Below are positions 1-32,000 of a stretch of 32,000 nt of DNA, one piece after another. Every line of letters starts with the position of its first letter. Position 1 is the stretch's first letter. The translations under genes were made by a program, and so were the position numbers. The stretch is from Bacteroidales bacterium. GTDB lineage: Bacteria; Bacteroidota; Bacteroidia; Bacteroidales; UBA12077. The stretch covers positions 82,924 through 114,923 of the forward strand of contig JANQHR010000046.1 of NCBI GenBank assembly GCA_028282585.1, given 5' to 3'. The notes beneath the pieces are model-generated. The model did not search any database, was not told where the DNA came from, and worked only from the letters and a program-made list of their open reading frames with translations.

Positions 1-3000
1 TTAGATTGTAATTTTCTTACCAGCTGACATTTCTTCCTCTACCAAACCTACATTCTTAATCATATCGATTAGTACCGCAATTTTTCGAATGGTAGTAGCA
101 ACGAATATATCAGAAATAAGTATTTTAATATCAAAGGTGTTATTTATTTGATTTATAAGAATATTTGCTTTTACGGAATGTCCGCCAAGTTCAAAGAAAT
201 CAGCATCAATACTAATCTTATTATCAGAAATACCTAATATATTGGACCATATTGTAACCAGTTGAGCTTCTAACTCTGTTGTAGGTGGTATATATTCAAT
301 TGTATCTTCAATATTTATCTCTGGCAATGCAGTTTTATCAACCTTTCCATTTTTGTTTAAAGAAATATTTTCAATTTCTTTGAAATACTGAGGAATCATG
401 TACTCAGGAATAACATCTTTTAATTCCTCCTTTATATCATTTGAATCTATTTCATAATCTGTAACATAGTAAGCACATAAATATTGCATGTTTAAATTAT
501 CCGTTTTTACAATTACAATAGCATCTGATATACGATCCAGTGATTTTAAAACAGACTCGATTTCTCCTAATTCAATACGATAACCTCTAATTTTAACCTG
601 AAAATCATTTCTACCGATAAATTCTAAACTGCCATTTGGTAACATTCGAGCTAAATCTCCTGTTTTATATAGTTTTTCATTATCAACAAAAGGATTTTTA
701 ATATAACATGTATTAGTTAATATCAGATTATTCAAATAACCTTCCGTTATACATTCTCCACCTATATATAATTCACCAACCATACCTTTTGGTAAAGGAT
801 TTAAATCCTCATTTAAAATGTAAACTTTAGTATTTGGAAATGGATTACCAATTGGAACATTGGTGTTCTTATCTGTTTCAGTATTATATTTATGGATAAT
901 ACACCCTACAGTAGCCTCAGTTGGGCCATACTCATTAAATATTTCTATCCTATTGGCAAATAAATCAATTATATTATGTGCCAATTGTGTTTCTAGTTGT
1001 TCTCCTCCTATTACTATTGTTTTTACTCTACTCTTATTGATTATATCACTCAAACCTTGATTGTCTCTAATAAGCTTTAAATGTGAAGGCGTTAATTTAA
1101 TTACATCCACTTTATTATCCGATAGTACTTTCTCAATATCCGCTTCTTCGTAAATTACTAATTTACTACCATTTATCAAAGGAGTAAAAATTGATGTGAT
1201 GGTTAAATCAAAAGTCAATGATGTATATAACGGGAAATTAGATTCCTTTTGTTTACAATAAAACTTATTAGCACTCCAAATGTAATTAACCAAGTTCTTA
1301 TGATTAACCAAAACTCCTTTGGGATTTCCTGTAGTTCCTGATGTATAAATGCAATAAGCGATATTATACGTAAATCCCTCGGGTAAGTTTTCTTTATAGC
1401 TTAAAAGCTTTTCGTTATTTAAATTTTCATAAAAATCATTTATCTCAAAAATCTTTATTTTACTATAACTATCCTTATTAAAAGCAATTCCAGGAATTTC
1501 AATTAACTGCTTTTCTGTAGGGAAACTTCCCTTATTTTCAAGGATTGTTGAAACTACCTGTGCAAAGGTCTTCTCACCTTCTCCAAAAACAACCAAATCA
1601 ACGTTTAAGTTTTTAAGTACTTCATCATAATTACTAGTTGGATAAGGACCTCCTGCGATTAATATCCCTTTATAATATTTCCTAATATTTTCAACTGTTT
1701 CGTTAAAATATAGTTTATAATAAACTAAGGACCTACAACCTACAATATCCGGTTTGAATTCTTCAATTATTTCTTGCAATTCAGAATGACTATCAAAATC
1801 AACCCGTGATTTTATAATTTTACAATTAACTTTATTATTAAATTCTTTATTAATGTATGTTGCCAGATACATTAAGCCCAATGGAGGCTCAATTACATCA
1901 TAAATATCCTGAGAATCTTTTGAAAAATATAATGATAAATCTATTAAAAGTATTTTAAGTCTATCATTGGATTTAACATCATGTGAAAAATGAGCTTTAA
2001 TTTTTGAGTTTAAGTCAATTGTTTTATTACTTTCAGAATTATTCTCATCTAATTCTATTTCATCTTTAAGTCCTATAAAATTCAATAATTCTTCAAATGT
2101 GCTAATATTAACAGGTAGATAACTGTTATATTTTTGAACTAATTCATCTTTCGTTAATACCTTTAATTGATATGGCAATACTTTTTTAAGTCTCTCTTTA
2201 GAAAGAAAGTATTCATTAAGAAATATTGATTGATACTTTTTTGTAAATGATTCATTAAACGGCAAAGTTAAAGGTAATGCATGATGAGGAAGATGTTCTG
2301 ACATTGAAATAGATTTCTCAGAAATACCATTTTCCAATGCCATTTTATGCATATCTGTATTTTTATAAATCTTTAAAATATTGATATAAGGAAAATGTAT
2401 CCATTTAATACTTTGAATAAAATTTAATGTCATTAGAGCTTCCTCTTCTGTTTCAGTTGGGAATCCATGCATTGTCATTAGTTCAATAATAACCTGAGGA
2501 TAGGTTTTACTAATATATTCAAGATTATCTTTTAATTTTTGTAAATCAATATTTTTATTTATAAGCTTTTGTAATCGTGGAGACGCGGTTTCAAGAGCTA
2601 AAGCAAAATTTACAACACCTGCTTTTACCATCAAATCAATGTACTCTTTAGTTAAGATATCTCCTCTTAATCCGTTAGGGAAAAAAAAGTTTACTTTTAA
2701 TCCATTTTCAATAATCAGTTCAAAAAATCGCTTACTGTTTTGAACATTTAAATTAAAAATATCATCAACAAATGAGAATCTTTTAATTCCCATTTTATAG
2801 TAAAGATTAACTTCTTCGAATATATTATCAGCAGATCTAAATACATGCTTTTTAGACCAAACTTTATGACAATATGCACATTTAAAAGGACAACCTCTGG
2901 TTGCTTGAATTGAAATGCTATTTTTCACCATAGCTTGTCCTATATATTGAGTATAATAGTTATAATCAACTAAAGAACGGTTAGGCATAGGTAAAGAATC

Positions 3001-4947
3001 AAATTCTTTAATTGGATCTCTATTTATTGTTTTTACAATATTATCGGTATCAAGAATATTCTGAATTTTTCTCTCTCGAATTATTTTCTTCGAAGCTATA
3101 ATCAATGATAATTGAGAATCAGTTACAATAGTACGAAGTCTTTTTTCAGGTATATCGGTATCCAAGGGTAAATAAACACAGTTTAGTTTAAGTATTCCCA
3201 GTATTGCAACTATTGTATCGATTGATCGTTCCATCATAACACCGACCATCTCACCTTCGTTGATATTTTTATATTTAAGAAATGCAGCAAATTTATCTGA
3301 CACTTCTCCAAGTTCTTTATATGTCAGAGTTTCTTTATGCATTTGCAATGCTATATCGGAAGGAGTTTCTTCTACCTGATTATTAAATAAATCAATAATG
3401 GTCTTATCGTAGGGAAAATACGATTTTGTTCGGTTAAGGTCAAAAACTATCCGTTCTTTTTCTTCAGAAGTAAGCAGATCAACCTGTCCTAAAGTCAACT
3501 CATCATCTCGAACAATCTGATTAGAAAGATTTTTAAAGAAACTCCCAAATCTATCAATAGTATCTGAATTAAATAAATCAGTTGAATATTCAAAGTTTAA
3601 TAAGATTTGGTTACCGTAATCATACACATTTAGTCTTAAATCAAACTTAGAGTGTCCCTTTATATGGTTGTTTATTGTATTATGATCAGATTTTTTAATT
3701 TCAGTTTCTTTGGTATTTTGTAAAGCAAATACAACATCAAATAAGGGATTTCTATTGGTATTTTTTGTTATGGTTAATTTATCTAACAACTCCTCCAGAG
3801 GATACTCTTGGTTTTCAAAGGCTTCCACTGTTAAAGTCTTGATTTCTTTAAGGTAATCTTTAATCTTCTTATTTCCATCCGGGAAACTTCTTAAAGCCAT
3901 TGTATTAACAAACATTCCAACAACTCCCGCAAAATCAACATGAGGTCTGGCTTCATTTGTAGTTCCAATAATAATATCATTTTGTCCGGATATCTTTGAC
4001 AATAGTATCTTAAATGTTGCTAACATTATCATGTATAATGTTAATCCATTTCTTGATATATATGCCTTTACATTTTGAGTTTCACCTATCGATAGTGCAT
4101 AGGAAACCGTAGCTCCTTCGAAATTTATATTCGCGCTGCGAGAATAATCAGTTGGCAGGTCTAATGAAGGTAATTCGCCAGCTAATTTTTGTAACCAATA
4201 TTTCTCACTTTGGAGCTTCTTATCATGTTGCTGTTTACTTTTTCGCCATTCAGAAAAGTCAGTATATTGCAAATTACGTGAAGCCAATTTTTTCCCTTCA
4301 TACAATTTTATAAAATCTTCAGTTAGTATTGAGTGTGATATACCATCGCAAATGATGTGGTGCATATCAATAAACAAAAGTGATCTGTTCGTATTTGTTT
4401 TTATCAAACTACTTCTAACTAATGGAGCTTTATCCATTTCAAAAGGTTTTAATAAAGTATGCTGAATATTATTAATTTCTTCTTCTTGAATATATAACTC
4501 GTTCAAAGTAAAATTGATATTTTCATTAATTATTTGAACTATGGAATCACCCACCATTCTGTAAGATGACCTTAAAATATCGTGATGATTAATCAGAATT
4601 GAAAATAATTCTTCGATTTTATCCTTGTCAAGGCCATCAGGTAATGGAATGAAAAAGGGCATATTATATGCAACATTATTAGATAACTGTTGCAATAAAT
4701 ACATTCTGGTTTGCGGAGAAGTTAATGAATAATATTCCTTTTTTTCACTTTTTTTTATATTAGCAAATGAATTTTGCCTATTATACTTAACTAGAAATTC
4801 AATTAATTCTTTCTTATTATCTCTAATTAATTCTATTAACTCCTTCGTTATTTTTTCCTTATCACCTTTCAGTTTTATTTGATTTTCACTTAATCCAATT
4901 TTAATTCCTTTCTGATTGAGGTGATCTACCAGTTCGAAGATATTCAT
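1..4947 (-). CDS. NRPS, one module: TubC_N-like docking domain - C - A (interrupted by radical-SAM + B12-binding-like didomain) - T
   Basis: 1648-aa ORF with ATG at 4945-4947 and TAA at 1-3. Motifs read in the translation: HHIICDG (C3), LTYKEL (A1), [11 protein letters not shown] (A2), CPFKCAYC (radical SAM), [11 protein letters not shown] (A3), NEYGPTE (A5), YKTGD (A7), [20 protein letters not shown] (A8), LPEYMIP-like IPEYMIP (A9), NGKVDK (A10), FFELGGHS (carrier). Confidence 0.92.
   Translation of the reverse strand: [1648 protein letters not shown]
73..291 (-). other. Peptidyl carrier (T) domain
   Basis: aa ~1553-1625. [15 protein letters not shown]...[15 protein letters not shown], with the phosphopantetheinyl Ser at aa 1591. 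Confidence 0.9.
313..1374 (-). other. Adenylation domain, C-terminal fragment (A3-A10); hand-extracted specificity code DLTKVGEVGK (Asn/Asp-like)
   Basis: aa ~1192-1545 with motifs A3-A10 as listed for the CDS. The code comes from aligning FDLTITS / IKLTPSH / IVIGGEQ / [11 protein letters not shown] / NGKVDK to the GrsA-PheA positions 235-517. It is intermediate between the recalled Asp (DLTKVGHIGK) and Asn (DATKVGEVGK) codes. Confidence 0.8.
1528..1962 (-). other. B12-binding-like (flavodoxin-fold) domain of class-B radical SAM type, located C-terminal to the radical SAM core
   Basis: aa ~996-1140. LKILLIDLS...[15 protein letters not shown]...[18 protein letters not shown]...[19 protein letters not shown]...[17 protein letters not shown]...IPGIAFNKD. 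This matches the consensus pattern I recall for the N-terminal cobalamin-binding domain of B12-dependent radical SAM enzymes. Confidence 0.7.
2068..3015 (-). other. Radical SAM core domain nested in the A domain
   Basis: aa ~645-960. [15 protein letters not shown] linker-like motif, [14 protein letters not shown] (CX3CX2C; Cys codons at nt 2869-2892, verified on DNA), [38 protein letters not shown]. Confidence 0.85.
2437..2472. repeat. 36-nt dispersed repeat, copy A (35/36 identical to 31532-31567)
   Basis: agcttcctcttctgtttcAgttgggaatccatgcat here versus agcttcctcttctgtttcGgttgggaatccatgcat in the other copy. It encodes [12 protein letters not shown] in both nested radical SAM domains. Confidence 0.9.
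3082..3420 (-). other. Adenylation domain, N-terminal fragment (core motifs A1-A2)
   Basis: aa ~510-622. [17 protein letters not shown] (A1) and [22 protein letters not shown] (A2). The A-domain sequence then stops and resumes about 570 aa later at A3. Confidence 0.85.
3448..4746 (-). other. Condensation (C) domain
   Basis: aa ~68-500. [12 protein letters not shown] (C1-like), HHDILRSSY (C2-like), HHIICDG at nt 4342-4362 (verified on DNA), [51 protein letters not shown]. Confidence 0.9.
4783..4947 (-). other. N-terminal docking domain, TubC_N-like
   Basis: aa 1-55, [52 protein letters not shown]. The pattern is a short helix, then G-I-x-I/L 'x-G-x-L-x-L-x-x' hairpin, then a K/E-rich helix ending EL-I-x-F-L, as in TubC-type N-terminal docking domains. 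It sits directly before the C domain. Confidence 0.6.
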
Positions 4948-5103
4948 TTTCTATTTATTAATTATTAATTCAGATTAAGCTTATCTTTTAATTATTCTTT
5001 GAACAGTAAGAAAATAAGCCTTCAATATTTATTAATTTGATTATCTTTTATTTACAAATTACACTATACTAAAATCTAAGAAAGTAAGGTGGTATCAGAT
5101 TAA

Positions 5104-8100
5104 TTAAATAATAATTTCAACTTCCTCATTAACTTCATCGTCTTCTTCAATATTTTGGAGTAATTGAATCAGTTTTGAAATTGTTTTTATGTTAGGGTTT
5201 TCAAAGAAATCTCCAAGTCGGATTTCTATATTGAATTCTTTATATATCATTGAAGTAATTTGAATTGCATTTAAGCTATGTCCTCCAATTTCAAAAAAGT
5301 CGTCGTATATGCCTATTTTATCAAGTGCAAGAACTTCTTCCCAAATTTTAGTTAATTTTTTTTCTACATTGGTTTGTGGTTCGACATAGCTATTACTTTC
5401 AAGCTTAAAGTCTTTTAAATTTGCCAACTGCCTCCTGTCAGCCTTTCCATTTGTATTTAATGGTATTTTATCCAGTTGAATAAAAAAAGTTGGAACCATG
5501 TAAGCTGGTAATTTTTTTGAGATTTCCGATATAATAACACTGGTGTCTATTTTATTTTTATTCGATACAGTATAAGCCACCAGTTTTTTATTTCCCGAGT
5601 TATCATCTATTGCTATTACAACACTTTCTTTAATATCATCCAATTGATTAAGTACCGATTCTATTTCTCCCAGTTCAACTCTAAATCCTCGTATTTTTAT
5701 TTGATCATCTATTCTACCCAAAAATTCTATATCGCCACTTGGAAGCCATCTTGCTATGTCGCCAGTTTTATAAATTCTAACTGCATCCTTAGGGTTATCT
5801 TTTTCAGAATAAATTTTACCACGTTCTTTATTCCATATTATAAATTTATCTTTTGTCAGAGAATTATTCTGATAATACCCTCGTGCTAAACCGACACCAC
5901 CTATATGTAATTCTCCGGGGATACCAACAGGTTGTAATTTGTGGTTATTATTTAAAATAAAAAGATTAATATTATCAATAGGTTTACCGATTGGAATTGT
6001 ATCTACTTTTTCATCCCTGGTGCAATTATAATATGAAACGTCAACTGTCGCCTCGGTAGGACCATAAAGGTTTACTAAATTAACTTTTAAGTTTTTAAAT
6101 AATTCATTAAAAAATAAAACACTATTTGCCGATAAGGCTTCACCACTAGCAAATACCTGTATTAAACTTTTTAGATTGTCTACGTCTACATTATGATCCT
6201 TAATATACTGTAAAAAAACATTTAACATAGAAGGCACAAAATGTATTTTTGTTACTTCTTTTTTAGTTATTGTCTCAATTATTCTATTTGGATCTTTTTC
6301 TTCATTTTTGTCTAATAAAACCAATGATGCCCCATAAAAACTCCACCAAAATAGTTCCCATACTGAAACATCAAAACCTATTGAAGTCTTTTGAATCAAA
6401 ATATCCGTTGGAGAAGCATTATATTTTTTTTGCATCCAGTTAATTCTGTTTATTACAGAATGATGTTCTATCATAACTCCTTTAGGTTTTCCTGTAGAAC
6501 CCGATGTATAAATAACATATGCTATATTGTTGGAGTTAGCCTGATTAAATTCTTTTAATCCAGGTTTTTCATAAGAAAAACTATCTATGAATATCAAATC
6601 TGTACCCGTTTCTTCGAACTTATCCTTTAAATGAATTTTTGTTATAACAAGGTTACATCCACTATCTGATAGCATTATTGATATTCTTTCATCAGGATAA
6701 TCTGGAATAATAGGTAAATAAGCAGCTCCTGACTTTAAGATTCCATAAATACAGATCATCATTTCTATTGATCTATCCATACTAACTCCTACTAGCTTTT
6801 CAGGCCCAATTCCACAATGTCGAAGATATTCTGCTAATTCATTTGCTTTAGCATTTAATTCTTTATATGTTATTCTTTCATCTTTATAGATTAAAGCAAT
6901 CTTATTAGGAGTTTTTAAAACCTGCTCTTCAAATAAATAATGGATACATTTCTCTTTAGGATAATTAACTTTTGTATTGTTGAAATTACCTAAAATCTGA
7001 CCCTTTTCTTCTTTTGTCAATATATCCAGTTCATTTATAATAATATCTTTATTCTCAACTACACTTGTAACTATCTTGTTAAAATGCTTTAATATTCTTT
7101 TAACCGTATCTCTATAAAATAAATCGGTATCGTAAATTATAGAAAGTTTTATTTCATTATTATTATGATGAAATATGAAATCCAAATCAAATGTACTTTT
7201 TATATTATTGCTGCTGTTTTTAAAAGGTTTCAAACTTAAATGATTGCTATTACTTGTTTCATTTTCATAAACAAAATCTCGATCACTATTATATAATACA
7301 ATTACATCAAAAAATGCAGATCCTACCGAATTTCTTTCTGTAGATAATTCCTCAACTAATTTACTAAATGGATATTCCTGGTGATTATATGCTTCTTGAG
7401 TATTATCTCTAACACTATTTAAAAATTGCTCAAAAGTTTTATTTCGATCAACTTTATTTCTTAAAGTCAACATATTTACATAATATCCAATTTGATCTCT
7501 TAAATTATAATTTTGTCTACCTGATACAGGAGTTCCAATTATTATATCATTTTGGTCTGTATATTTATAAAGTAATATTTTCACTAATGAAAGTAGTGTC
7601 ATAAATGGAGTAGAATAATTGCTTTTACTGATATCAAGTAAACTATCCACCTGGTATTTGGATAGAGTCAGGCTTACAAGATCTGCTCCATGTGATTTGC
7701 TTTTTGTCCTACTTTTATCGGTTGGAATATTTAAAGATGGCAGTTTACCTCCAAGTATTTTATGCCAATATTCTTTGTGTTTTCTATAAATATCCGAGTT
7801 TACTATATTATTTTGCCAGGCACTGTAATCTTTATACTGAATTGTTAATGGTTCAACTAGTACTTTTTCATTATTTATTCGAGAATTGTATAGATTTAAT
7901 GCATCTTTACCAAATACATACATTGACCATCCATCGCTTATAATGTGATGCATTGCGTAAACAAAGACATATTTCTTTTCTTCAATCTTAATCAGATAGC
8001 TTCTTAACAAAGGTCCTTTGTATAAATCAAATCTTTTTGTTTTAGCTTCTTTTATTAATTCATTTACTTTCTTTTCTGTAGAAGCTTCTTTACTAAAGTC

Positions 8101-12300: not shown

Positions 12301-12392
12301 TTTAATTTGATTAAAACTTCGACGAAATCTAAGAGTTACTTTGTTTATAGACGTTGATTAATATTCAGATATTTTCTTAACTGTTAAGTGTG

Positions 12393-23767: not shown

Positions 23768-23888
23768 CTTCCTCTACTTTGGATAGTAAATAAAAATACA
23801 TTTAGATCAGTATTTATATTCTAAAGTTTATGATATAAACTATTGATCGATTATAAAATCTATAACACTTAGGTTTAAGTATGTCTAA

Positions 23889-25034
23889 TTATTTAGTATT
23901 GTAATAATACTTTCTGAGTGCGTAACTGGATATTATGTTTTTTTGTATTTGTGATGTTCCTTCAATTATCTCCAATACCTTAGCTTCTCTAAATAACCTT
24001 TCAACAGGGTATTCTGAATAACATCCATTTCCTCCATGAACTTGTACAGCATCAATAGCAACATTCATTGCAATTTTTGAGGAAAAATATTTTGCAATTG
24101 TAGTTTTTATTACAGCTTCATGACCTTTATTCATTCTATTATTTGCAGCTTCAATACATAAGGCTCTTGCTGCATGGATATTTGTAGTAGCATCAGCAAT
24201 CATTCCCTGAATATGTTGAAAGGTATGTATACCTTTCCCAAATTGATTTCTATTTCTTGAATATTTCACCATTGCATCTAACGCTTCCTGTGCAATAGCA
24301 ACACCCGCCCAAGCAATACTATATCTTCCATTATCAAGCGCAGTATTAACAACAAATGAAAAGCCGCATCCTTCTTTGCTTAACAAATTCTCACGAGGTA
24401 TTTCTACATTTTTAAATTCAATTTCTGATATATGTGAAGCTTTATTAGCTAATAAACCTTTTATTGGCTTAACTTCTATCCCCTCATAATTGCGTTCAAC
24501 AATAAAAGTAGATATTCCTTTTTCTCCTCTTGCTACAACTATGAAGAAATCAGCAATTTCAGCAAAACTTATCCATTTTTTCTTTCCATTTAGAATATAT
24601 CCGGAATTAGAATCTGAATATGAACACTGAATATTTTTTGCATCCGTACCTACATTTGGTTCAGTTAAAGCAAAAGCCCCAATCTTCTCTCCTGTTGACA
24701 TCATTGGTAACCATCTCATCTTTTGTTCAATACTCCCCCATTTTAGCAAAGTTTCAGCAACTAAAGAGGTATTAACAGTTATTAATCCACGCGTATTACA
24801 ACATGCTTTACCAATTTCTTCCGTAAACAATCCATAATGAAGTGAATCTAGCTCAAGGCCACCAAAATCTCTTGGTATACTTGCAGTTAAGTATCCATTT
24901 TTAGCTAAATTAGTAATTAAATCATTTGGCAGTTTTTCCTCGTTTTCAAAAATAGTAGCAAAAGGCCTTATCTTTTTTTGAGCAAATTCTTTTACTTCTT
25001 CAATAACAGTATTTTGATCTATCAAATTATTCAT
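23889..25034 (-). CDS. Acyl-CoA/acyl-ACP dehydrogenase family flavoprotein (FkbI-like)
   Basis: The ORF track gives 389 aa from a TTG at 25056-25058. I prefer the ATG at 25032-25034 (MNNLIDQ...), preceded by AAAGAGG. ACAD-like motifs: GAFALTEPNVGTDA, WISFA, VQVHGGNGC, EAKVLEIIEGTSQIQKNII. Confidence 0.85.
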   Translation of the reverse strand: MNNLIDQNTVIEEVKEFAQKKIRPFATIFENEEKLPNDLITNLAKNGYLTASIPRDFGGLELDSLHYGLFTEEIGKACCNTRGLITVNTSLVAETLLKWGSIEQKMRWLPMMSTGEKIGAFALTEPNVGTDAKNIQCSYSDSNSGYILNGKKKWISFAEIADFFIVVARGEKGISTFIVERNYEGIEVKPIKGLLANKASHISEIEFKNVEIPRENLLSKEGCGFSFVVNTALDNGRYSIAWAGVAIAQEALDAMVKYSRNRNQFGKGIHTFQHIQGMIADATTNIHAARALCIEAANNRMNKGHEAVIKTTIAKYFSSKIAMNVAIDAVQVHGGNGCYSEYPVERLFREAKVLEIIEGTSQIQKNIISSYALRKYYYNTK

Positions 25035-25045
25035 TGCCTCTTTAG

Positions 25046-25747
25046 TTATAAACTGCAAATGGCAACGGTAAAATCGTAGACATACCCATTACTACTCAAG
25101 CTCTGCCTCACTTTTAAACCTCCATTCTCCAGTATATTAATCAGTTCCGACTCTTTCAATAGTTCTCTGTATCCTAAATTGAGTTCTGGATGCATTTCCA
25201 TAAAAACTCGTGTTAGAACAGTATCTGTAGGTACTGAGATAATTATAACACCATCTTCGGCTACATATTTTTTATGTTGCTCAATGATTGATGTTTTATC
25301 CATAAAGTGTTCAATAAGCCCAAAACTCCCTACAATATCATACTTTTGATCCAGTGATAAGTCAAAAATATCTTCACGTAAGTAAGATATATTTTTAACA
25401 ACAGTATCCTTTATCAGTGAAAAAGAATTAAACGCTTCTTCTGATTTGTCAACAAGCGTGGCCCTTCCTCCATACTGATTTAAAAGCCATCGGCTTAAAA
25501 ATCCAGTTGCGGCTCCTAACTCAAGTATTTTAGGATTTGATTTTATTTTTTCTGTTGATAAAAGTTCAAGCATTAGTCTAGTAAAAGAAAACGATAATCT
25601 GAATTTGTCTTCTTTTAATAATTCTCGTATTTGAAAAAATAGCTTTTCTTTATCACAACTATTGATTAGTTCCTTATTTCTATCCTTTGAAAAAAACATG
25701 TCCCATTCGAAACCTTCTTTTGATAAATAATCTGTTGTTATATACAT
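25046..25747 (-). CDS. Class I SAM-dependent methyltransferase (in the position of FkbG)
   Basis: 233 aa with ATG at 25745-25747 (verified). Motif I ILELGAATGFLSRWL, acidic post-I LVDKSE, YDIVGSFGLIEHF, DGVIIISVP. Confidence 0.8.
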   Translation of the reverse strand: MYITTDYLSKEGFEWDMFFSKDRNKELINSCDKEKLFFQIRELLKEDKFRLSFSFTRLMLELLSTEKIKSNPKILELGAATGFLSRWLLNQYGGRATLVDKSEEAFNSFSLIKDTVVKNISYLREDIFDLSLDQKYDIVGSFGLIEHFMDKTSIIEQHKKYVAEDGVIIISVPTDTVLTRVFMEMHPELNLGYRELLKESELINILENGGLKVRQSLSSNGYVYDFTVAICSL

Positions 25748-25788
25748 TTTAAAAACGATATTATTTAATCCGATAAAAGCAATTATGT

Positions 25789-26034
25789 TCAGTTCCTATT
25801 TTTATTGATAAGATTAATGATATTATCAATAGAACTAAAATTTGAGATATCAATATCTTCATTATTTACAGAAATACTAAACTCACTCTCCACATAACTA
25901 AGCAGTTTCATTGCAAAAAGAGAATTAACAAATCCTTTTTCAAAAATGTTATCACTATCAGAAAAAATGACTTCATCATTAAAAACTATTAAATTGCTTT
26001 CGATGAATTTTCTAATCTTATCTTTAGTTTCCAT
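25789..26034 (-). CDS. Stand-alone acyl carrier protein (FkbJ-like)
   Basis: 81 aa with ATG at 26032-26034. Carrier motif FEKGFVNSLFAMKLLSYVE (Ser within VNSL at the DSL position). It lies between the FkbH-like and methyltransferase genes. Confidence 0.75.
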   Translation of the reverse strand: METKDKIRKFIESNLIVFNDEVIFSDSDNIFEKGFVNSLFAMKLLSYVESEFSISVNNEDIDISNFSSIDNIINLINKNRN

Positions 26035-26046
26035 AATTTTAAAAAT

Positions 26047-27081
26047 TTAGTTTATTGATAATTTAATATATGGTGGAAATTCTTGAATTTTTTCAAGAGT
26101 ATTTTCGAATTTTATGTAGCCGTTATCTAAAACTAATACTTCCTTAAAATTGGAAAATTTATATGTTACGTACATCATTTTATTACGATCCGTCTTGATA
26201 AAATCTGCAGTTACCTTTTTATTTTCTGTTTTTGCTTGTTTCATAATATAAGAAAGTAGTACTGATCCTACACCACGTGATATAACTCGACAAGACATTA
26301 ATAATAGTTTTACTTCCCATGTAATTTCGGTAATATGTATTAAACCCAAACCTATTTTTCCATATGATCCATACTTGTCTTTTAATTCACAAACCAATAA
26401 TTTATGATTAGGAGATGATCTAAAATAGTTAAGTTCCTTATAACTATATGTTTTCCCTGTTGCATTTAATTGATTAGTACGCACAGTCAACTCCTCGGCT
26501 CGTTGAAGATCTTCTTCAGCTGCTTCTGAAATAATAAATTCCATATTTAATGAGGCTAAAAACTCATCTTTGGGTCCTTCATACTCTTCTTCAAGTCTTG
26601 TTCTTTTAATATTCTCAAGATACATTAATCTTCTTCGTTGAGAATCTTTTGTTATAAATTTCGGATTAAATCGTGATCTAGATAATAATTCTTTATAATC
26701 TACTGAATCAATACATTCAACTTGAGGACACTGGGATTTAACCTCCTCTCTTTCATATGGTTGATCATCAATAAAAACAATTGTATCAATTCCAATATTT
26801 AAATCTTTTTGTATTTGAGCGACCGATGCTGACTTAGCATTCCAATTAATTTGAGGATATAAAAAATAATGATCTATGCTGAATTCTTTCAATTTTCTCA
26901 TAGCATCATCATAGTTATTCTTACTTGATATTGAGTTTAAAATCCCTCTAGAATCTAATGTATTTAATATATCCTCTATACCGGTTTTTAATTTTATGGT
27001 TTTAGACTCAGTTAAAACATTATCCCAAATTGTGTTATCTAAATCCCAAATAACACATTTAACCTCTTTCTTATATTCCAC
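26047..27081 (-). CDS. FkbH-like protein (HAD-IIIC phosphatase + acyltransferase, glyceryl-ACP forming)
   Basis: 344 aa with an apparent GTG start at 27079-27081. HAD motif I VIWDLDNTIWD, SISSKN (motif II-like), IVFIDDQPYERE. The C-terminal half carries LLLMSCRVISRGVG, matching the FkbH-family SCRVxxRG Cys motif as I recall it. Confidence 0.8.
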   Translation of the reverse strand: MEYKKEVKCVIWDLDNTIWDNVLTESKTIKLKTGIEDILNTLDSRGILNSISSKNNYDDAMRKLKEFSIDHYFLYPQINWNAKSASVAQIQKDLNIGIDTIVFIDDQPYEREEVKSQCPQVECIDSVDYKELLSRSRFNPKFITKDSQRRRLMYLENIKRTRLEEEYEGPKDEFLASLNMEFIISEAAEEDLQRAEELTVRTNQLNATGKTYSYKELNYFRSSPNHKLLVCELKDKYGSYGKIGLGLIHITEITWEVKLLLMSCRVISRGVGSVLLSYIMKQAKTENKKVTADFIKTDRNKMMYVTYKFSNFKEVLVLDNGYIKFENTLEKIQEFPPYIKLSIN

Positions 27082-27099
27082 CTTATTAATAGATAAACA

Positions 27100-27954
27100 T
27101 TAGTATTTATAAAATCCTTTGCCCGTTTTTTTACCATAATCTCCAGCATGTACCATTTTTTTCAACAAAGGACAACATCTAAATTTAGGATCCTGATATT
27201 CCTCATAAAGAACATCTAACGAATTAACAACCGTATCTAAACCTATTAAGTCAGCTGTTTCTAACGGGCCCATTTTATGGCCATAACCACGCTTAAATAT
27301 TTCATCAATTTTATCAGGGCTAGCAACTTGGTCTTGAACCAAAAATGCAGCTTCATTCATAAATAAATGTGACAGTCGATTTGCAACAAAACCTGGAAAG
27401 TCTTCTACAACTATTGCCTTTTTATTTAATAGTTTAAGTATTTTCTCTGCTTTATCAATTGTGTCTTTACTAGTATGATATCCTTTAACAACTTCCACTA
27501 TATTTTTAAGTGGAACGGGATTCATAAAATGTAATCCAATCACGTTTTCGGATTTTTCAAATTCGCCTGCAATTTTAGTTATTGAAATACAACTAGTATT
27601 TACAGCAAAAATTTCCCATTCAATTTTTTCGTTTTTTAACTCTGTGTATAAACTCTTTTTAGTATTCCAATTTTCGGTTATATTTTCAACAATAATATCA
27701 AGTTCTTTAAAATCCTCCCATTCTTTTGTAAAAGTAATCTTAGCCAAAACGTGCTCTGTACTTACATGAGCAAATTCCTGTTTTATCATTTTCACTAACC
27801 TTAATTCACTACCTAGCTTTTGTTTGGCATTAAGTAGTGCATTTTCTGAAATATCCTTCAATATTACATTACAATTGTTCAGTGCAAAATCAAGAGCAAC
27901 GCCTACTCCCATAACCCCTGCTCCGATTACACCAACACTTATTTCTTTATTCAT
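27100..27954 (-). CDS. 3-hydroxyacyl-CoA/ACP dehydrogenase (FkbK-like)
   Basis: The ORF is open to 28014, but the ATG at 27952-27954 (MNKEISVGVIGAGVMGVGVA) places the Rossmann GxGxxG at the normal N-terminal position. Other motifs: HFMNPVP, GFVANRL, MGPLETADLIGLD. Confidence 0.85.
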   Translation of the reverse strand: MNKEISVGVIGAGVMGVGVALDFALNNCNVILKDISENALLNAKQKLGSELRLVKMIKQEFAHVSTEHVLAKITFTKEWEDFKELDIIVENITENWNTKKSLYTELKNEKIEWEIFAVNTSCISITKIAGEFEKSENVIGLHFMNPVPLKNIVEVVKGYHTSKDTIDKAEKILKLLNKKAIVVEDFPGFVANRLSHLFMNEAAFLVQDQVASPDKIDEIFKRGYGHKMGPLETADLIGLDTVVNSLDVLYEEYQDPKFRCCPLLKKMVHAGDYGKKTGKGFYKY

Positions 27955-28030
27955 TTTTCTATTTTTAATAAACAATCTATATATGTTAGAATGGATGTAT
28001 CCAGTATGTTGCAACTATAGTTGACTGAAT

Positions 28031-31000
28031 TTAATTATTCAAAAAGCTATTTTTCATAAAATCTTTTCCTTCTTCTAAAGTTTCGAAATTATTCACAGTA
28101 GTATTTTCTTCACTCTGTTCAGATTCCAAATGATCTGTTAATCCTTTTATAGTGGTATACGTAAATAAGGTTGTAATAGGAATTTCTTTGTCGAGTAACT
28201 CGTTTAGTTTAGTATTCACTAAAATTAAACTTAAAGAGCTTCCTCCGAGATCAAAGAAATTATCATTTACACCTATTCTATTTAGTTTTAAAACTTCTTT
28301 CCAAATTGCTTCAACCGACTTCTCCATTTTGCTTTCAGGTGCAACATATGTTGTCCCTGTCATGGCCCTATCTTTTTGCGGTGCAGGAAGTGATTTAAAG
28401 TCAATTTTACCACTAATTGTCAACGGAATAGAAGGAATCTCTGTGAAATATGAAGGTACCATATATTCAGGTAATGATTCTAATAGAAATTCTCTTAAGG
28501 TATTTGAATTAACATTTTCTGAAAAACCATTCACCGGAATGAAATAAGCTGCAATATATTTCTCATCATCTCTAATATTTACTTTTTCGCTCACCCCCAG
28601 CCTTCTTAAAAAGTTACCATATGCCTTTTCGGAGACCTTACAATTTAAATCTTCTTCAACGTTCTCAAGGGATAAGTGATCTAGTCTTTTTTCCCAACTT
28701 GTTGCTGAACCATAATAATGAAATCCATGATCTTTCATAAAACCATAATCTCCAATTTCTTTTATAGCACAGTTTGTTGAATAAACTGCAAAGTCTTTTT
28801 TCTTTTTCCAGTATGAGTCTTGTTTATTTAAATAGGTTATTAAATCCTCATTTTTAATATCACAAAACCTATAAAAATCCAGAAACCTCACTTTATCATG
28901 TATTCTACCGTCCGTTACTACATCTATATCAACTAAGTCAAATATTTTACTATCAATCTTTGGAGTATTCTTTTGCATATTTAATATTTCCTTTTCAATT
29001 AACTGATTATCCATATTTTCAGATTTCATGAAAATATTAAGTTTGTTTTCAATTATTTGACCCCTTGAAAGTGTAGCTCCAATAACAACTTTAATATCGT
29101 GTTTGTAAGCATACTCAGCAGCAAGCGAACTTGATACATGAAAACATCCCCTACATACAGTCGAAAAGGATTTCATACTTTCTTTAAGTATAATATCAGA
29201 TATATCGTGCTTTAAAATGATATTTTCAACACCCAACGATGATGTTACATATTTTATATTCTTAATATCTGATTTAGAAAAGTAACCATTGTCATATGTT
29301 AAAGTTAATACCTTCAAACCCATTTTAACCAGTTGATATAAAGCATAACCTGCTCCCCGTCCTCCTGCATAAAGTAAAATACAATCATATTTACTTTCTT
29401 TATCTTTATTTTGCTCTTTTACAAAAGTTTGAAGATCATCTAAAGATTTAAAATATTCATTAATGACTTTACTATTTTTTTCCAAGGAATTACACTGGTT
29501 ACAGATATTACTGTCATCTATCTTAATCTCTGGATAAGTAGAATTAATTCCGCATTTTTTACAATATTTTAATTCCGGTTTATCATCCTTTGGCGACCTA
29601 ACCATTAAAACACAGTCCTTAATATTCTGATGTTTTTGTAAAGCATTCTTTATTTCTCCAAGTTCAATTCTATATCCTCTAACCTTAACCTGTTCGTCTT
29701 TTCTTCCTTTAATTTCAATATTCCCATCTATTAACCTTCTACCAATATCTCCGGTTTTATAAAGTTTCCCTTCTCCAAATGGATTATCAATAAATACTTC
29801 ATTTGTTTTTTTCCAATTATTAATATATCCTCTTGCAATACTATCTCCTGCTATACAAATCTCACCATAATAACCAAGTGGTTTTTGTTGTAAATCGTCC
29901 GAAAGAATATATACTTGATTATTTGCAACATTATTGCCAATAGGAATTATTTCTCGAGTATCATCTTTCTTTAAAGGATAAAATGTATTATTAATAGTAC
30001 CTTCTGTTGGACCATAAGTATTAACAACCCTACCTTCCAAATAATTATGGAAATTTCTAACAACATTGGCAGCAACAGGTTCAGCTCCTATAAACAGGAG
30101 TGGTATTTTAATTTTAATATCATTTTCATAGGAATCTAAAATATGGGTAATAGCAGTAAACATAGATGCTGTGCAGTACATCTTTGTAATTTCAGTAGCT
30201 TTTGACAGAAGTTTTATTAAATGGTTAGCATCTTTACTTATTATGTCATTAATGACTTTTACTTTAGCACCTTTGTACAATGGCCAAAATACTTCGAAAA
30301 CTGACGGATCGAATGTAAGATTTGTACGTTGTGCCATTACATCAGTTTCTAACATCCCAAATTCCTTATCCATCCAGAATACACAATTATTTACTTGTTT
30401 GTGTTCCACCATTACACCTTTTGGCACTCCTGTTGATCCTGATGTGTACATAACAAAAGCCAAATCACTACCATTGGTGGGTATATCCAAATTCGAAGAT
30501 GGTTTATCTTTTAATTGATCAACCATTTGATCAATAATTATAATATTCCTGGTATCCAGCACATTTTTTTGTAATATTTTTTTATATACAATTCCATTTA
30601 TAGACTCTAGTTGCCTAGTATCAGGAATATTAAAGTCATTCTTAAAAAATTCCTTAAGTAATTCTTCAAAAGTATATTCTCCTTCACCAAGTACAGCTAA
30701 ATCAACATTTTCATCTTTTAGAATAGTATCGTAATCACTTGATGCATACGGCCCACCTACAATTAATGGAACCTTTATTCCCCAATTTCTAATAATAGAA
30801 ACTGTTTGGTGAAAAAAGTCTCTGTAAAAAGTCAAAGTTCTTATTCCAATTAGATCTGGATTAAACTCTTTTACCAAGGTTTGCAACTCCTGGTAATTAT
30901 CAAAATCAACACCTGCCTTATATATAAGCCCATCGATCTTATCCTTGAATTTCTTTTTAAGATATGTCAATAAGTATACTAAACCAATAGGTTGTTCAAC

Positions 31001-32000
31001 AACCTTATATAGCATACTGTGACTACTGAAGTGCTGAGATAAATCTAATAGCAGTATTCTTTTTTGATTTTGTTTTTTTTCGCTTGCTGTATTACCTGAA
31101 CTGTTAAAAACTATTGGCGCATCAATTTTTATTTTTTGATCGAATTTTAGCTGTGTATTATTTAATCCGGCAAGCTCCATAATATCTTCAACATTATTAA
31201 TTTCAACAGGCAAATAAGCATTATATTTTTGTATAAGGGCCGTTTCATTTAAGACCTTCATCTGTGCCGGAAGTACCTGTTTAAGCCGATCTTTATTAAG
31301 AAAATACTCATTCATAAAATCAGCCTGATACTTTCTTGTAAAAGATTTCGGAAATGGTAAAGTTTCCGGTAGTTCATGAAATGCCCTATCTTTTGAATTC
31401 ATTATATCACTTTTTCGCACTCCATTTTTCAAAGCAAATTCTTCCATTTCTGTATTTGGAAAGATTTTTAGAATATGTATATATGGAAAATGTAACCATT
31501 TAATATCCTTTATAAATTTTAGGGTCATCATAGCTTCCTCTTCTGTTTCGGTTGGGAATCCATGCATGGTTGCCATTTCCAGTATTACATGTGGATGAGT
31601 ATTTGCTATATAGTTTACAACATCACGAAATTTATCAAGGTTTAGGTTCTTTTTTAGTAATTTTTGTAACCTTGGGGAGGCTGTTTCCAATGATAAATTA
31701 ATTCCTCTGGTACCTGCTTCTACCATCAAATCAATATAATCCGGAGTCATGATATCTCCTCTTAAACCATTTGGAAAGAATAACTGAATATCAAGCTTAT
31801 TTTTTACAATATTTTGAAGAAGCGCGCCACTTTCTCGTAAATTCAAATTAAAACAATCATCAATAACAGCAAAGTTCCGAACACCTTTTTTATAAAAAGA
31901 TTTTATTTCCTCGAAAATATTATCACCACTTCTATGGACATGGTGTTTAGACCAAATTTTATGACAATAAAGACATTTATACGGGCACCCCCGTGTTGTT
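28031..32000 (-). CDS. NRPS, 5'-truncated by the window edge: ...A(A1-A2 outside window) - radical SAM - B12-binding-like - A(A3-A8) - Zn-ribbon/PP-loop-like domain - A(A9-A10) - T
   Basis: The ORF track starts at a TTG (31846), but the frame stays open to nt 32000. My hand translation of 31847-31999 gives TTRGCPYKCLYCHKIWSKHHVHRSGDNIFEEIKSFYKKGVRNFAVIDDCFN, colinear with aa 683-733 of the 1-4947 protein. The stop is at 28031-28033. Confidence 0.9.
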   Translation of the reverse strand, partial: TTRGCPYKCLYCHKIWSKHHVHRSGDNIFEEIKSFYKKGVRNFAVIDDCFNLNLRESGALLQNIVKNKLDIQLFFPNGLRGDIMTPDYIDLMVEAGTRGINLSLETASPRLQKLLKKNLNLDKFRDVVNYIANTHPHVILEMATMHGFPTETEEEAMMTLKFIKDIKWLHFPYIHILKIFPNTEMEEFALKNGVRKSDIMNSKDRAFHELPETLPFPKSFTRKYQADFMNEYFLNKDRLKQVLPAQMKVLNETALIQKYNAYLPVEINNVEDIMELAGLNNTQLKFDQKIKIDAPIVFNSSGNTASEKKQNQKRILLLDLSQHFSSHSMLYKVVEQPIGLVYLLTYLKKKFKDKIDGLIYKAGVDFDNYQELQTLVKEFNPDLIGIRTLTFYRDFFHQTVSIIRNWGIKVPLIVGGPYASSDYDTILKDENVDLAVLGEGEYTFEELLKEFFKNDFNIPDTRQLESINGIVYKKILQKNVLDTRNIIIIDQMVDQLKDKPSSNLDIPTNGSDLAFVMYTSGSTGVPKGVMVEHKQVNNCVFWMDKEFGMLETDVMAQRTNLTFDPSVFEVFWPLYKGAKVKVINDIISKDANHLIKLLSKATEITKMYCTASMFTAITHILDSYENDIKIKIPLLFIGAEPVAANVVRNFHNYLEGRVVNTYGPTEGTINNTFYPLKKDDTREIIPIGNNVANNQVYILSDDLQQKPLGYYGEICIAGDSIARGYINNWKKTNEVFIDNPFGEGKLYKTGDIGRRLIDGNIEIKGRKDEQVKVRGYRIELGEIKNALQKHQNIKDCVLMVRSPKDDKPELKYCKKCGINSTYPEIKIDDSNICNQCNSLEKNSKVINEYFKSLDDLQTFVKEQNKDKESKYDCILLYAGGRGAGYALYQLVKMGLKVLTLTYDNGYFSKSDIKNIKYVTSSLGVENIILKHDISDIILKESMKSFSTVCRGCFHVSSSLAAEYAYKHDIKVVIGATLSRGQIIENKLNIFMKSENMDNQLIEKEILNMQKNTPKIDSKIFDLVDIDVVTDGRIHDKVRFLDFYRFCDIKNEDLITYLNKQDSYWKKKKDFAVYSTNCAIKEIGDYGFMKDHGFHYYGSATSWEKRLDHLSLENVEEDLNCKVSEKAYGNFLRRLGVSEKVNIRDDEKYIAAYFIPVNGFSENVNSNTLREFLLESLPEYMVPSYFTEIPSIPLTISGKIDFKSLPAPQKDRAMTGTTYVAPESKMEKSVEAIWKEVLKLNRIGVNDNFFDLGGSSLSLILVNTKLNELLDKEIPITTLFTYTTIKGLTDHLESEQSEENTTVNNFETLEEGKDFMKNSFLNN
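28127..28354 (-). other. Peptidyl carrier (T) domain
   Basis: Track aa ~1165-1240. MEKSVEAIWKEVLK...FFDLGGSSLSLILV, with Ser at aa 1204. Confidence 0.88.
28367..28570 (-). other. Adenylation domain segment A9-A10
   Basis: Track aa ~1093-1160. EKYIAAYFIP, LPEYMVP (A9), PLTISGKIDFKSLP (A10, Lys517 equivalent present). Confidence 0.85.
28571..29584 (-). other. Zinc-ribbon + PP-loop-like adenine-nucleotide-alpha-hydrolase-type domain (WbpG/N-acetyl-sugar-amidotransferase-like) inserted between A8 and A9
   Basis: Track aa ~755-1092. YCKKC...(16 aa)...ICNQC (nt 29492-29563), then KYDCILLYAGGRGAGYALYQLVKMGLKVLTLTYDNGYFS. AGGRGAG (nt 29348-29368, verified) occupies the SGGxDS PP-loop position. Further downstream are STVCRGCFHV and LGVENII. 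The layout matches the CxxC..CxxC + YDCI-x-x-SGGKDS + 'vDnGw' pattern I recall for this family. Confidence 0.55.
29603..30484 (-). other. Adenylation domain segment A3-A8; hand-extracted code DPFYFGTINK (no match to any code I can recall)
   Basis: Track aa ~455-748. YTSGSTGVPKG (A3), TFDPSVFE (A4), NTYGPTEGTIN (A5), GEICIAGDSIARGY (A6), YKTGD (A7), GRKDEQVKVRGYRIELGEIK (A8). Confidence 0.85.
30647..31063 (-). other. B12-binding-like domain (paralogue of 1528-1962)
   Basis: Track aa ~262-400. KRILLLDLS...EQPIGLVYLLTYLKK...ELQTLVKEFNPDLIGIRT...VPLIVGGPYASSDYDTIL...VDLAVLGEGEYTFEELL...INGIVYKK. Confidence 0.7.
31172..32000 (-). other. Radical SAM core domain (paralogue of 2068-3015), partial at the window edge
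   Basis: CPYKCLYC, with Cys codons at 31985-31987, 31973-31975 and 31964-31966 (verified). AVIDDCFNL, LETASPRLQKLLKKNL, MHGFPTETEEEA. By eye, roughly 60% identical to the other copy across the aligned block I compared. Confidence 0.85.
31532..31567. repeat. 36-nt dispersed repeat, copy B (35/36 identical to 2437-2472)
   Basis: See copy A. The coordinates were counted directly on the sequence lines. Confidence 0.9.

Follow-up and report, generated by a model that had tools for sequence, protein, structure and literature searches.

The subject of this analysis was a 32,000-nt stretch of DNA (contig JANQHR010000046.1, positions 82,924-114,923), referred to below as the window, with all coordinates given as window positions. 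As judged from its sequence, the window represents the central 32 kb of one co-directional nonribosomal peptide synthetase–polyketide synthase (NRPS–PKS) cluster of an uncultured Bacteroidales bacterium. We assign a probability of about 0.62 to the joint reading that the cluster encodes one co-linear assembly line with on-line methylation by radical S-adenosylmethionine (rSAM) domains, a methylthiotransferase (MTTase), a family 4 glycosyltransferase (GT4) domain and subunits that dock by means of C-terminal tails and truncated condensation-like domains (half-C', or C'). The parts are of known kinds; their combination and the building of rSAM domains into the line are new variations on these.

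All long open reading frames (ORFs) were found on the minus strand. They correspond to ten genes, which encode the proteins P1 and P6 to P9 and, between P1 and P6, a five-gene cassette for a PKS extender unit. With condensation, adenylation and thiolation domains abbreviated as C, A and T, the co-linear order would be ...C-A(Pro)-T-C, P1, the five cassette genes, P6, P7, P8, P9 and then a B12-rSAM enzyme and an α/β-hydrolase, the latter two being taken from a related contig. Domains were assigned by Pfam and NCBIfam scans, and these bore out the co-linear domain order given in an earlier reading of the same DNA (the original prediction).

Radical SAM and B12-binding domains inside adenylation domains

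In both P1 and P9, the AMP-binding profile was split between core motifs a2 and a3 by an insert of ~540 aa, with both parts of the A domain retained. P9 (1-4947; 1648 aa) consists of a TubC_N dock (4792-4941), a C domain (3448-4740), the N-terminal part of A (3004-3387), an rSAM→B12 unit (1378-3000; CPFKCAYC), the C-terminal part of A (343-1368) and a T domain (76-264), and its rSAM/B12 unit is flanked by PF00501 profile positions 1-134 and 162-384. P1 (28031-32000) is a module composed of a half-C', a twice-interrupted A domain and a T domain; the window holds the 3' 1322 codons of this 1766-aa protein, which runs off the right edge. The first interruption of its A domain, at a2-a3 (30656-31999), comprises an rSAM core (PF04055; CPYKCLYC at 31964-31987) and, after it, a B12-binding domain (PF02310; 30656-30997). 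The T domain of P1, a peptidyl carrier protein domain, is located at 28127-28315 (PF00550, 50.9 bits; GGSS). The embedded inserts matched both PF04055 and PF02310, the latter with 46.5 bits and, in P1, 47.7 bits against a cut-off of 32.1, and they are not class I SAM methyltransferases (M domains). NCBIfam models of class B rSAM enzymes matched the insert as two swapped pieces, the rSAM part at profile positions ~170-400 and the B12 part at the profile N-termini. Three CxxxCxxC motifs were found in the window, in agreement with the three rSAM units of the original prediction.

Among 40 homologues of the embedded unit, the CxxxCxxC motif and 48 other columns were invariant. An AF2 model of the unit based on these homologues (pLDDT 85.9, pTM 0.85) predicted a partial TIM barrel and a Rossmann-type domain. 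In Foldseek searches, the barrel resembled AprD4, MiaB, RimO, MgmA and TsrM, and the second domain resembled the cobalamin domain of MetH; owing to the swapped domain order, no full-length match was obtained, and the per-domain matches alone are meaningful. Mmp10, the only case known to us in which an rSAM domain precedes a cobalamin domain, aligned with the model over ~500 columns, but with an rmsd of 13-15 Å.

Homologues of the embedded unit with 47-58% identity were found inside A domains on a second contig of the same metagenome-assembled genome (MAG), in another Bacteroidales MAG and in Aminicenantes and Acidobacteriota MAGs, and the host A domains have specificity codes of, among others, the Thr-, Ile- and Glu-types. 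The embedded unit matched more than 1,500 proteins in the database, many of them free-standing proteins of 540-580 aa that keep the rSAM→B12 order. In the cultured bacterium [Clostridium] polysaccharolyticum (FOHN01000005.1; locus L079, 10001-12981), NRPS/PKS genes are directly followed by those for a free-standing rSAM→B12 protein, which is 48% identical to the P9 insert, and for a B12→rSAM enzyme of canonical order. In another of the fetched loci (L081, 8230-13334), three tandem genes for free-standing rSAM→B12 proteins follow a megasynthase with an embedded copy. The free-standing homologues (P0001-P0120) have a conserved tail, ...FNDDLE(N/D)E-COOH, which is unlike the DFxF tail of the window's subunits and may represent a second docking code.

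Like the methyltransferases of interrupted A domains, the embedded rSAM→B12 units would act on the aminoacyl-S-T intermediate of their own module. By radical/cobalamin chemistry, they would place a methyl group on an unactivated carbon of the side chain, Cβ being the likeliest. The a2-a3 position is the known site of side-chain methyltransferases, as in TioN and MarQ, inserts otherwise being located at a8-a9 (PMC11355689). A census published in 2020 by Lundy, Mori and Garneau-Tsodikova recognized seven families of interrupted A domains, all of which contain M domains and one of which (family 7) is di-interrupted at a2-a3 and a6-a7; it makes no mention of radical SAM, B12, cobalamin or amidotransferase (PMC8341866). 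A study of 2025 termed a free-standing rSAM methyltransferase associated with an NRPS "an unusual enzyme combination" (PMC12858407).

The second interruption of the P1 A domain, at a8-a9 (28562-29563; ~335 aa), resembles WbuX/N-acetyl-sugar amidotransferase and carries a Zn-ribbon Cys pattern, as judged by its match to TIGR03573 (E 9e-28) and its alignment with PDB 8wex. The TIGR03573 score was 97.7 bits against a cut-off of 203.2; with this score and without an SGGxDS motif, the insert was not accepted as a member of the WbuX PP-loop ATPases.

Methylthiotransferase-like protein P7

P7 (12393-13721; 442 aa) is a stand-alone MiaB/RimO-like rSAM protein ending with ...DSSFNF. It matched PF04055, TIGR00089 (185 bits against a cut-off of 251) and PF00919 (26.3 bits against 27), and no match to the TRAM families PF01938 or PF18693 was found in it. 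The rSAM motif is present as CLRECTFC, and three N-terminal cysteines (in HCERH, ICGCG and ACLP) were located by eye only. P7 falls into a TRAM-less clade of ~110 clusters (36-61% identity, E <1e-68); true RimO and MiaB proteins, which have TRAM, appeared only from E ~1e-30 (25-31% identity).

In all four contexts examined (the window and three other contigs), the P7 homologue is preceded by a C-ending NRPS and followed by a subunit beginning with C'-A. The next A domain after the MTTase had the code DLTKIGEVGK in three of these contexts (the window and two others), and a P1-type module followed in the fourth. The clade gap, the lack of TRAM and the conserved NRPS context ruled out a housekeeping RimO, and the trans-acting MTTase of the original prediction was supported as a MiaB/RimO-like rSAM protein of a TRAM-less clade. 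Because RimO methylthiolates the Cβ of Asp, our best guess is that P7 would methylthiolate an Asx residue on-line; it would be delivered in trans to the following Asn-type module and install a methylthio group there.

Junctions between subunits

Subunits ending in a C domain were found to carry an acidic tail that terminates with aromatic-x-aromatic-COOH (for example, ...EEEDFTF or ...HEEEFNF), and a truncated C-like domain stands at the start of the subunit that follows. The half-C' domains cover only Pfam profile positions ~190-455, i.e., the C-terminal subdomain, and form a conserved family of their own without HHxxxD. The HHxxxD motif was present in five full C domains, including the one upstream of the window, and absent from both N-terminal half-C' domains. 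In the window, the tails of P6 and P7 are encoded at 13724-13741 and 12396-12410, respectively, and the half-C' of P8 at 11515-12300; tail and half-C' were also located at 3590-3607 and 3695-4480 of locus L002, which overlaps the window. The same features were observed in L005, L007, L008, L023, L037, L053, L062, L067, L070 and L084-L086, and half-C' openings after C-ending subunits occur in loci of at least three other groups. In the fetched loci, the tail was present in 10 of 41 C-ending subunits, in none of 33 T-ending subunits and in 8 of 277 others. Members of the MTTase clade share it: 56 of 110 end with [FWY]x[FWY]-COOH, with the consensus GDF(G/E/N)F.

The C-ending subunits and the MTTase would dock by a shared acidic ...DFxF-COOH tail onto the C' of the next subunit. 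For P8 and P9, pairing would occur via a classical acidic tail and a TubC-type docking domain: the TubC_N domain of P9 matched PF18563 with 32.8 bits against a cut-off of 26, and the donor tail of P8, which is acidic, ends with ...EEDDEVNEEVEIII.

Two other assignments at these junctions were tried and rejected. The half-C' domains are not recent duplicates of the preceding C domains, since the identity was 20-27% and the two C' were closest to each other. The terminal C domains are not epimerization (E) domains, since they contain SxAQxR(L)(F/Y), which we take to be the C1 motif.

Substrate order and glycosyltransferase domain

Specificity codes were obtained by aligning the A domains to a fragment of GrsA, with a numbering that was self-consistent and reproduced DAWTIAAICK. 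Predicted substrates were read from the codes with a code table; the Asn reading hangs on Glu322. The A domain upstream of the window gave DVQFIAHVVK (Pro). Within the window, P1 gave DPFYFGTINK, for which there was no recognized match, P6 gave DILQLGMIWK (Gly), the first and second A domains of P8 gave DLTKIGEVGK (Asn-type) and DVWHFSLVDK (Ser), and P9 gave DLTKVGEVGK (Asn-type). All codes of the window begin with D and end with K, and they bore out the Gly, Asx-like, Ser and Asx-like substrates proposed earlier. Core motifs a3, a5, a7, a8 and a10 were located in the A domains together with Asp235 and Lys517 (by eye only for a3 in P6 and for a8 in the first P8 A domain), and Ser was present in every T domain. 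The "lipo" part of the glyco-lipopeptide-like product in the original prediction was not borne out: a starter C domain, a fatty acyl-AMP ligase (FAAL) and an acyl ligase are all absent, and the sole PKS module is internal.

P8 (5104-12300; 2398 aa) has the order half-C'-A-T-GT4-C-A-T and an acidic tail, ...EEVEIII. Its half-C' is followed by A(Asn-type) (10042-11463), T (9769-9963), GT4 (8707-9642), C (6991-8349), A(Ser) (5443-6933) and T (5167-5358). The GT4 domain between T and C matched PF13692 (39.5 bits against a cut-off of 27), PF00534 (36.8 against 26.4) and PF13439 (30.1 against 28.5), in keeping with the on-line glycosyltransferase claimed earlier, which is putative; its motif reads E-x7-D, compared with EX7E in the family. 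Homologues with ~50% identity were mostly free-standing 449-aa GT4 proteins adjoining small NRPS genes, and about one in ten was fused to C, T, thioesterase (TE) or A domains. By sequence comparison, this looks like a GT4 clade dedicated to NRPS systems, and the domain would glycosylate the chain on-line. The closest relatives (L082, 8001-9350; L083, 10001-11887) are free-standing or C-fused and located beside one- or two-module NRPSs, each being preceded by an unannotated protein of ~386 aa.

Polyketide module and its extender unit

P6 (13721-23767; 3348 aa) has the order KS-AT-ψKR/KR-DH-ACP-C-A-T-C (KS, ketosynthase; AT, acyltransferase; KR, ketoreductase; DH, dehydratase; ACP, acyl carrier protein) and ends with ...HEEEFNF. 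Its PKS domains are KS (22610-23734), AT (21302-22171), ψKR and KR (19694-20950), DH (18824-19615) and ACP (18266-18457), and its NRPS domains are C (16886-18205), A(Gly) (15404-16825), T (15131-15325) and a terminal C (13724-15079). Catalytic motifs were found in the KS (Cys and two His, C-H-H), the AT (GHSIGE and VAGH), the KR (NADPH motif and Tyr) and the DH (HxxxDxxxxP and a DxxxS variant). The PKS order is KS-AT-ψKR-KR-DH-ACP; within it (18824-20950), the KR was nearest to the trans-AT KRs of MlnE and PksJ and the DH was nearest to those of CurF and CurK.

The cassette upstream of P6 encodes a 3-hydroxyacyl-CoA-dehydrogenase-like protein of the FkbK/ZmaG type (27100-28014; PF02737 and PF00725), an FkbH-like HAD phosphatase/glyceryl transferase (26047-27081; TIGR01686, 267.6 bits against a cut-off of 146.65), a discrete 81-aa ACP (25789-26034), a class I SAM methyltransferase (25046-25747; PF13489, PF13847 and related families, with weak UbiG- and BioC-like matches) and an acyl-CoA-dehydrogenase-like protein of the FkbI/ZmaE type (23889-25058; PF00441, PF02771 and PF02770). 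The cassette is thus complete; the ACP match was weak but consistent (NCBIfam ACP models with E 6e-8 to 1e-5; PF00550 with 20.3 bits against a cut-off of 20.8). The best PDB relative of the P6 AT was the AT of ZmaA (4qbu), a hydroxymalonyl-ACP AT (E 5e-84, 285 bits), followed by CurL with 181 bits. Because the FkbH cassette is complete and the AT is nearest to that of ZmaA, a glycolate-derived, ACP-linked extender for P6 is a well-supported prediction; the five genes would build hydroxymalonyl- or methoxymalonyl-ACP.

Flanking sequence and gene layout

Extension of the contig, as proposed in the original prediction, yielded flanks that reach about 5 kb on the upstream side and 3.3 kb on the downstream side. 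Window 25019-32000 is matched by Logan contig SRR20820736_79782 (loci L001/L002) with 1 mismatch in 6982 bases. In this contig, the N-terminus of the full P1 (1766 aa) consists of a truncated C-like domain and of the A-domain part with a1-a2. The P1 frame is open to the window edge at nt 32000, and the first ORF does not start at 31846. A further NRPS gene, ...C-A(Pro)-T-C, is situated upstream of P1 and is truncated where the contig stops. Because this Pro module precedes P1, P1 is not a loading module, and the earlier claim that the rSAM/PP-loop module is loaded first did not hold, at least ...C-A(Pro)-T-C being located upstream.

A scan of GTDB genomes showed that JANQHE010000031.1 of the Bacteroidales MAG PL23b_bin.85, the nearest public relative, is collinear with window 1-15322 at 98.4% DNA identity. 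On this contig (L003, 15351-18324), a 552-aa enzyme with the canonical B12-then-rSAM order and then a 424-aa α/β-hydrolase follow directly after the last T domain, and the contig ends there. Because both follow the last T in a 98.4%-identical contig, a fourth rSAM gene and a possible release hydrolase belong to the neighborhood. The hydrolase (GFSQGA) is S9/S15/S33-like, matches neither PF00975 nor a type II TE family, and is, by its sequence features, a possible candidate for release or processing. Extension thus added an NRPS gene on one side and the B12-rSAM and hydrolase genes on the other, and both ends of the line are still beyond reach. P9 had no exact match on record, the cassette genes were found in one 12-kb Logan contig only, a metagenome scan with the upstream protein returned no relative, and no other fetched locus overlaps the window.

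The ten co-directional genes, a count that includes the 81-aa ORF at 25789-26034, are separated by gaps of 156, 121 and 92 nt, which are the largest three, or by 12-41 nt, or overlap, as the original prediction had stated. Its other statements about the layout were also confirmed: the stop codon of the last gene is at nt 1-3, the protein itself ending in a T domain (PP-binding match), the loading and release steps are both located beyond the window, and no TE, reductase, phosphopantetheinyl transferase, MbtH-like protein, transporter or regulator was found inside it. The ORF listing and a motif check showed the ORFs to be intact, with no frameshifts. No Rfam families or tRNAs were found in the window by Rfam and tRNA scans. 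Promoter-like counts at nt 1-20000 equaled the shuffled expectation, and this result is uninformative since the consensus used may not suit Bacteroidota promoters. The G+C content of the window is ~29%. It amounts to 0.32-0.34 at 15001-17000 and 21001-25000 (parts of P6 and the end of the cassette), compared with 0.27-0.29 elsewhere, and this rise could reflect a different origin of the PKS part. The sole plus-strand ORF of at least 150 aa, a 157-aa ORF antisense to P8 (9998-10471), is probably spurious.

Alternative explanations

Several observations weigh against the joint reading. The cluster is an orphan with no known product, and C-methylation, methylthiolation, glycosylation and all other chemistry are inferred. 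The specificity codes depend on alignment to a GrsA fragment, and pairwise and multiple alignments differ at one or two positions. Window 15323-25018 is covered by no independent assembly. The tails are read by us as docking codes, with C' as the receiver, from co-occurrence only. In P6, the KR has no LDD motif and is located before the DH. The cassette methyltransferase is a class I enzyme with matches to UbiG, BioC and TehB-like families and does not look like an FkbG-type O-methyltransferase; because of this, hydroxymalonyl is as likely an extender as methoxymalonyl. Of the "probable methoxymalonyl unit" in the original prediction, the glycolate-derived extender was supported, on the strength of the cassette and the ZmaA-like AT. 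In the embedded units, the B12 domain comes after the rSAM core, the reverse of the class B order. Their best NCBIfam matches were ApyD, BchE and PhpK, the best score being 98.5 bits against cut-offs of 251-775, so that no characterized equivalog (PhpK, BchE, KedN5 or TsrM) could be assigned; the top Foldseek match was the diol dehydratase AprD4, and class B rSAM enzymes also catalyze reactions other than methylation. These matches, together with the absence of E domains from the window modules and host A codes so different that they are also compatible with action at Cα, favor the view that the embedded units are not methyltransferases and would subject the tethered residue to another radical reaction, such as epimerization, dehydration, rearrangement, a hydroxylation-type reaction or the formation of a C–C or C–S bond. 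We consider this unlikely, though deserving of serious weight, given that the B12-binding domain is retained above the Pfam cut-off and strongly conserved, that the matches also include PhpK, KedN5, the MCR glutamine methyltransferase and TsrM, and that the rSAM peptide epimerases known to us have no B12-binding domain. On-line methylation is therefore kept as the preferred reading of the embedded units.

Another explanation treats parts of the line, namely the half-C' domains and the WbuX-like insert, as evolutionary debris left without activity by rearrangements; the cluster may then be silent or make a product much simpler than its domains imply. A further point against the joint reading belongs here: at the PP-loop position, the P1 insert has AGGRGA where PDB 8wex has SGGKDS, so that of the "PP-loop-like" tailoring proposed earlier a WbuX-like domain was recovered without its canonical SGGxDS loop. 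Homologues elsewhere keep that loop, namely the insert of a Deferrimicrobium NRPS (L037; SGGKDS) and a free-standing copy in L067 (SGGVDS), and the C' domains lack both HHxxxD and the whole N-terminal subdomain. However, a 50.8%-identical whole module from another metagenome (L086, 8470-13971; code DPWYIGTINK) has NGGRGA and keeps the Cys motifs; because it carries the same variant, GGRGA is, by this comparison, conserved and not the result of random decay. The C' motifs are common to several phyla, C' follows a C-ending subunit in the loci examined, and the ORFs are all intact; such debris is accordingly an improbable explanation. Still less probable, to the point of being very doubtful, is that the genes do not form one co-linear line, with the subunits acting in another order or belonging to two adjacent pathways and the MTTase or the cassette serving something else. 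This would fit with the missing line ends, the non-canonical C|C' junctions and the interruption of the NRPS genes by the MTTase and cassette genes. Against it stand the tight spacing in one direction, the agreement of the junction features with the gene order (P6 tail to P8 C'; P8 acidic tail to P9 TubC dock) and the recurrence of the order NRPS, MTTase, C'-A in three unrelated contigs; no terminator-like sites were found in the gaps within nt 1-20000, the part scanned, which is weak evidence. A single co-linear line with on-line tailoring and tail/C' docking thus remains the preferred reading.

Discussion

In the open-access literature searched in full text, no description was found of A domains with an internal rSAM or B12 domain, of an MTTase dedicated to NRPSs or of the C|C' junction, an absence that is not proof. 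Oxygen-sensitive rSAM enzymes built into amino-acid-loading domains were likewise absent from the literature searched. We tentatively propose, at somewhat less than even odds, that the window exemplifies an NRPS "dialect" that is as yet undescribed, occurs widely among uncultured anaerobes and performs rSAM chemistry on the assembly line itself. It would be characterized by order-swapped B12-rSAM units, either at a2-a3 or in trans with an FNDDLENE tail, by TRAM-less MTTases and C-ending subunits that share DFxF-COOH, and by C' as the reader of this tail. Its hosts may include Bacteroidales, Aminicenantes/Acidobacteriota, Omnitrophota, Deferrimicrobium and some Clostridia, and its products may be peptide–polyketides bearing C-methyl, methylthio and sugar groups.

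Should the embedded units be active, inert side-chain carbons could be alkylated and a C–S bond formed on a residue still bound to its carrier, a chemistry so far found mainly in RiPPs (peptides made by the ribosome and modified after translation) and with one free-standing NRPS-associated enzyme, DscE. The known interrupted A domains would then extend beyond class I methyltransferases, and two natural insertion sites able to accommodate very large domains with cofactors would become available to NRPS engineers. If the DFxF tail and C' bind each other, they would provide a new portable means of ordering subunits and recruiting tailoring enzymes. The free-standing form beside NRPS/PKS genes in cultured [Clostridium] polysaccharolyticum makes the chemistry experimentally accessible.

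Compared with known interrupted A domains (TioN and MarQ at a2-a3; TioS and KtzH at a8-a9), P1 and P9 similarly combine a foreign catalytic domain with intact A halves at matching sites. However, the known inserts are class I methyltransferases or, elsewhere, KR/Ox domains, whereas those of the window are ~540-aa rSAM+B12 units and a WbuX-like domain. Di-interrupted A domains are already known (family 7, a2-a3 and a6-a7), and the combination of a2-a3 with a8-a9 in P1 differs from them. With PoyB and PoyC (polytheonamides) and DscE (discodermin), the embedded units share CxxxCxxC, a B12 domain and an association with peptide natural products, the known enzymes methylating unactivated side-chain carbons; DscE demonstrates that such methylation occurs on nonribosomal peptides (PMC12858407). 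These enzymes are free-standing, act on finished or ribosomal peptides and have B12 before rSAM, whereas the window's units have rSAM before B12 and are fused within A domains.

P7 resembles MiaB and RimO in its rSAM core and in a putative UPF0004-type N-terminal domain with three Cys (by eye), and it precedes an Asn/Asp-type module. It differs from them in having no TRAM, a TIGR00089 score below the cut-off, a separate clade, a DFxF-COOH tail and an NRPS-gene context. The extender cassette resembles those of zwittermicin (ZmaN/D/G/E with the ZmaA AT) and FK520 (FkbG-K) in having FkbH, ACP and both dehydrogenase-like genes in one block, and for zwittermicin the likeness extends to the P6 AT, which is most similar to that of ZmaA. 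The window differs from both in its apparently UbiG/BioC-like, not FkbG-type methyltransferase, its anaerobic Bacteroidales MAG host and the position of KR before DH.

The C' domains resemble the X domain of glycopeptide synthetases and the "interface" domain of siderophore synthetases. With these and with the docking of short linear motifs to β-hairpin docking domains (SLiM–βHD; TubC), the junctions would share a dead C-like fold as a platform and short C-terminal docking peptides, and P9 has a bona fide TubC_N. Unlike X and interface domains, C' consists of the C-terminal subdomain only and is N-terminal, immediately preceding A, with a complete C domain before it at the end of the preceding subunit. 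In contrast to known docking systems, the DFxF tail of the window, with its predicted docking role, is common to NRPS subunits and a tailoring enzyme.

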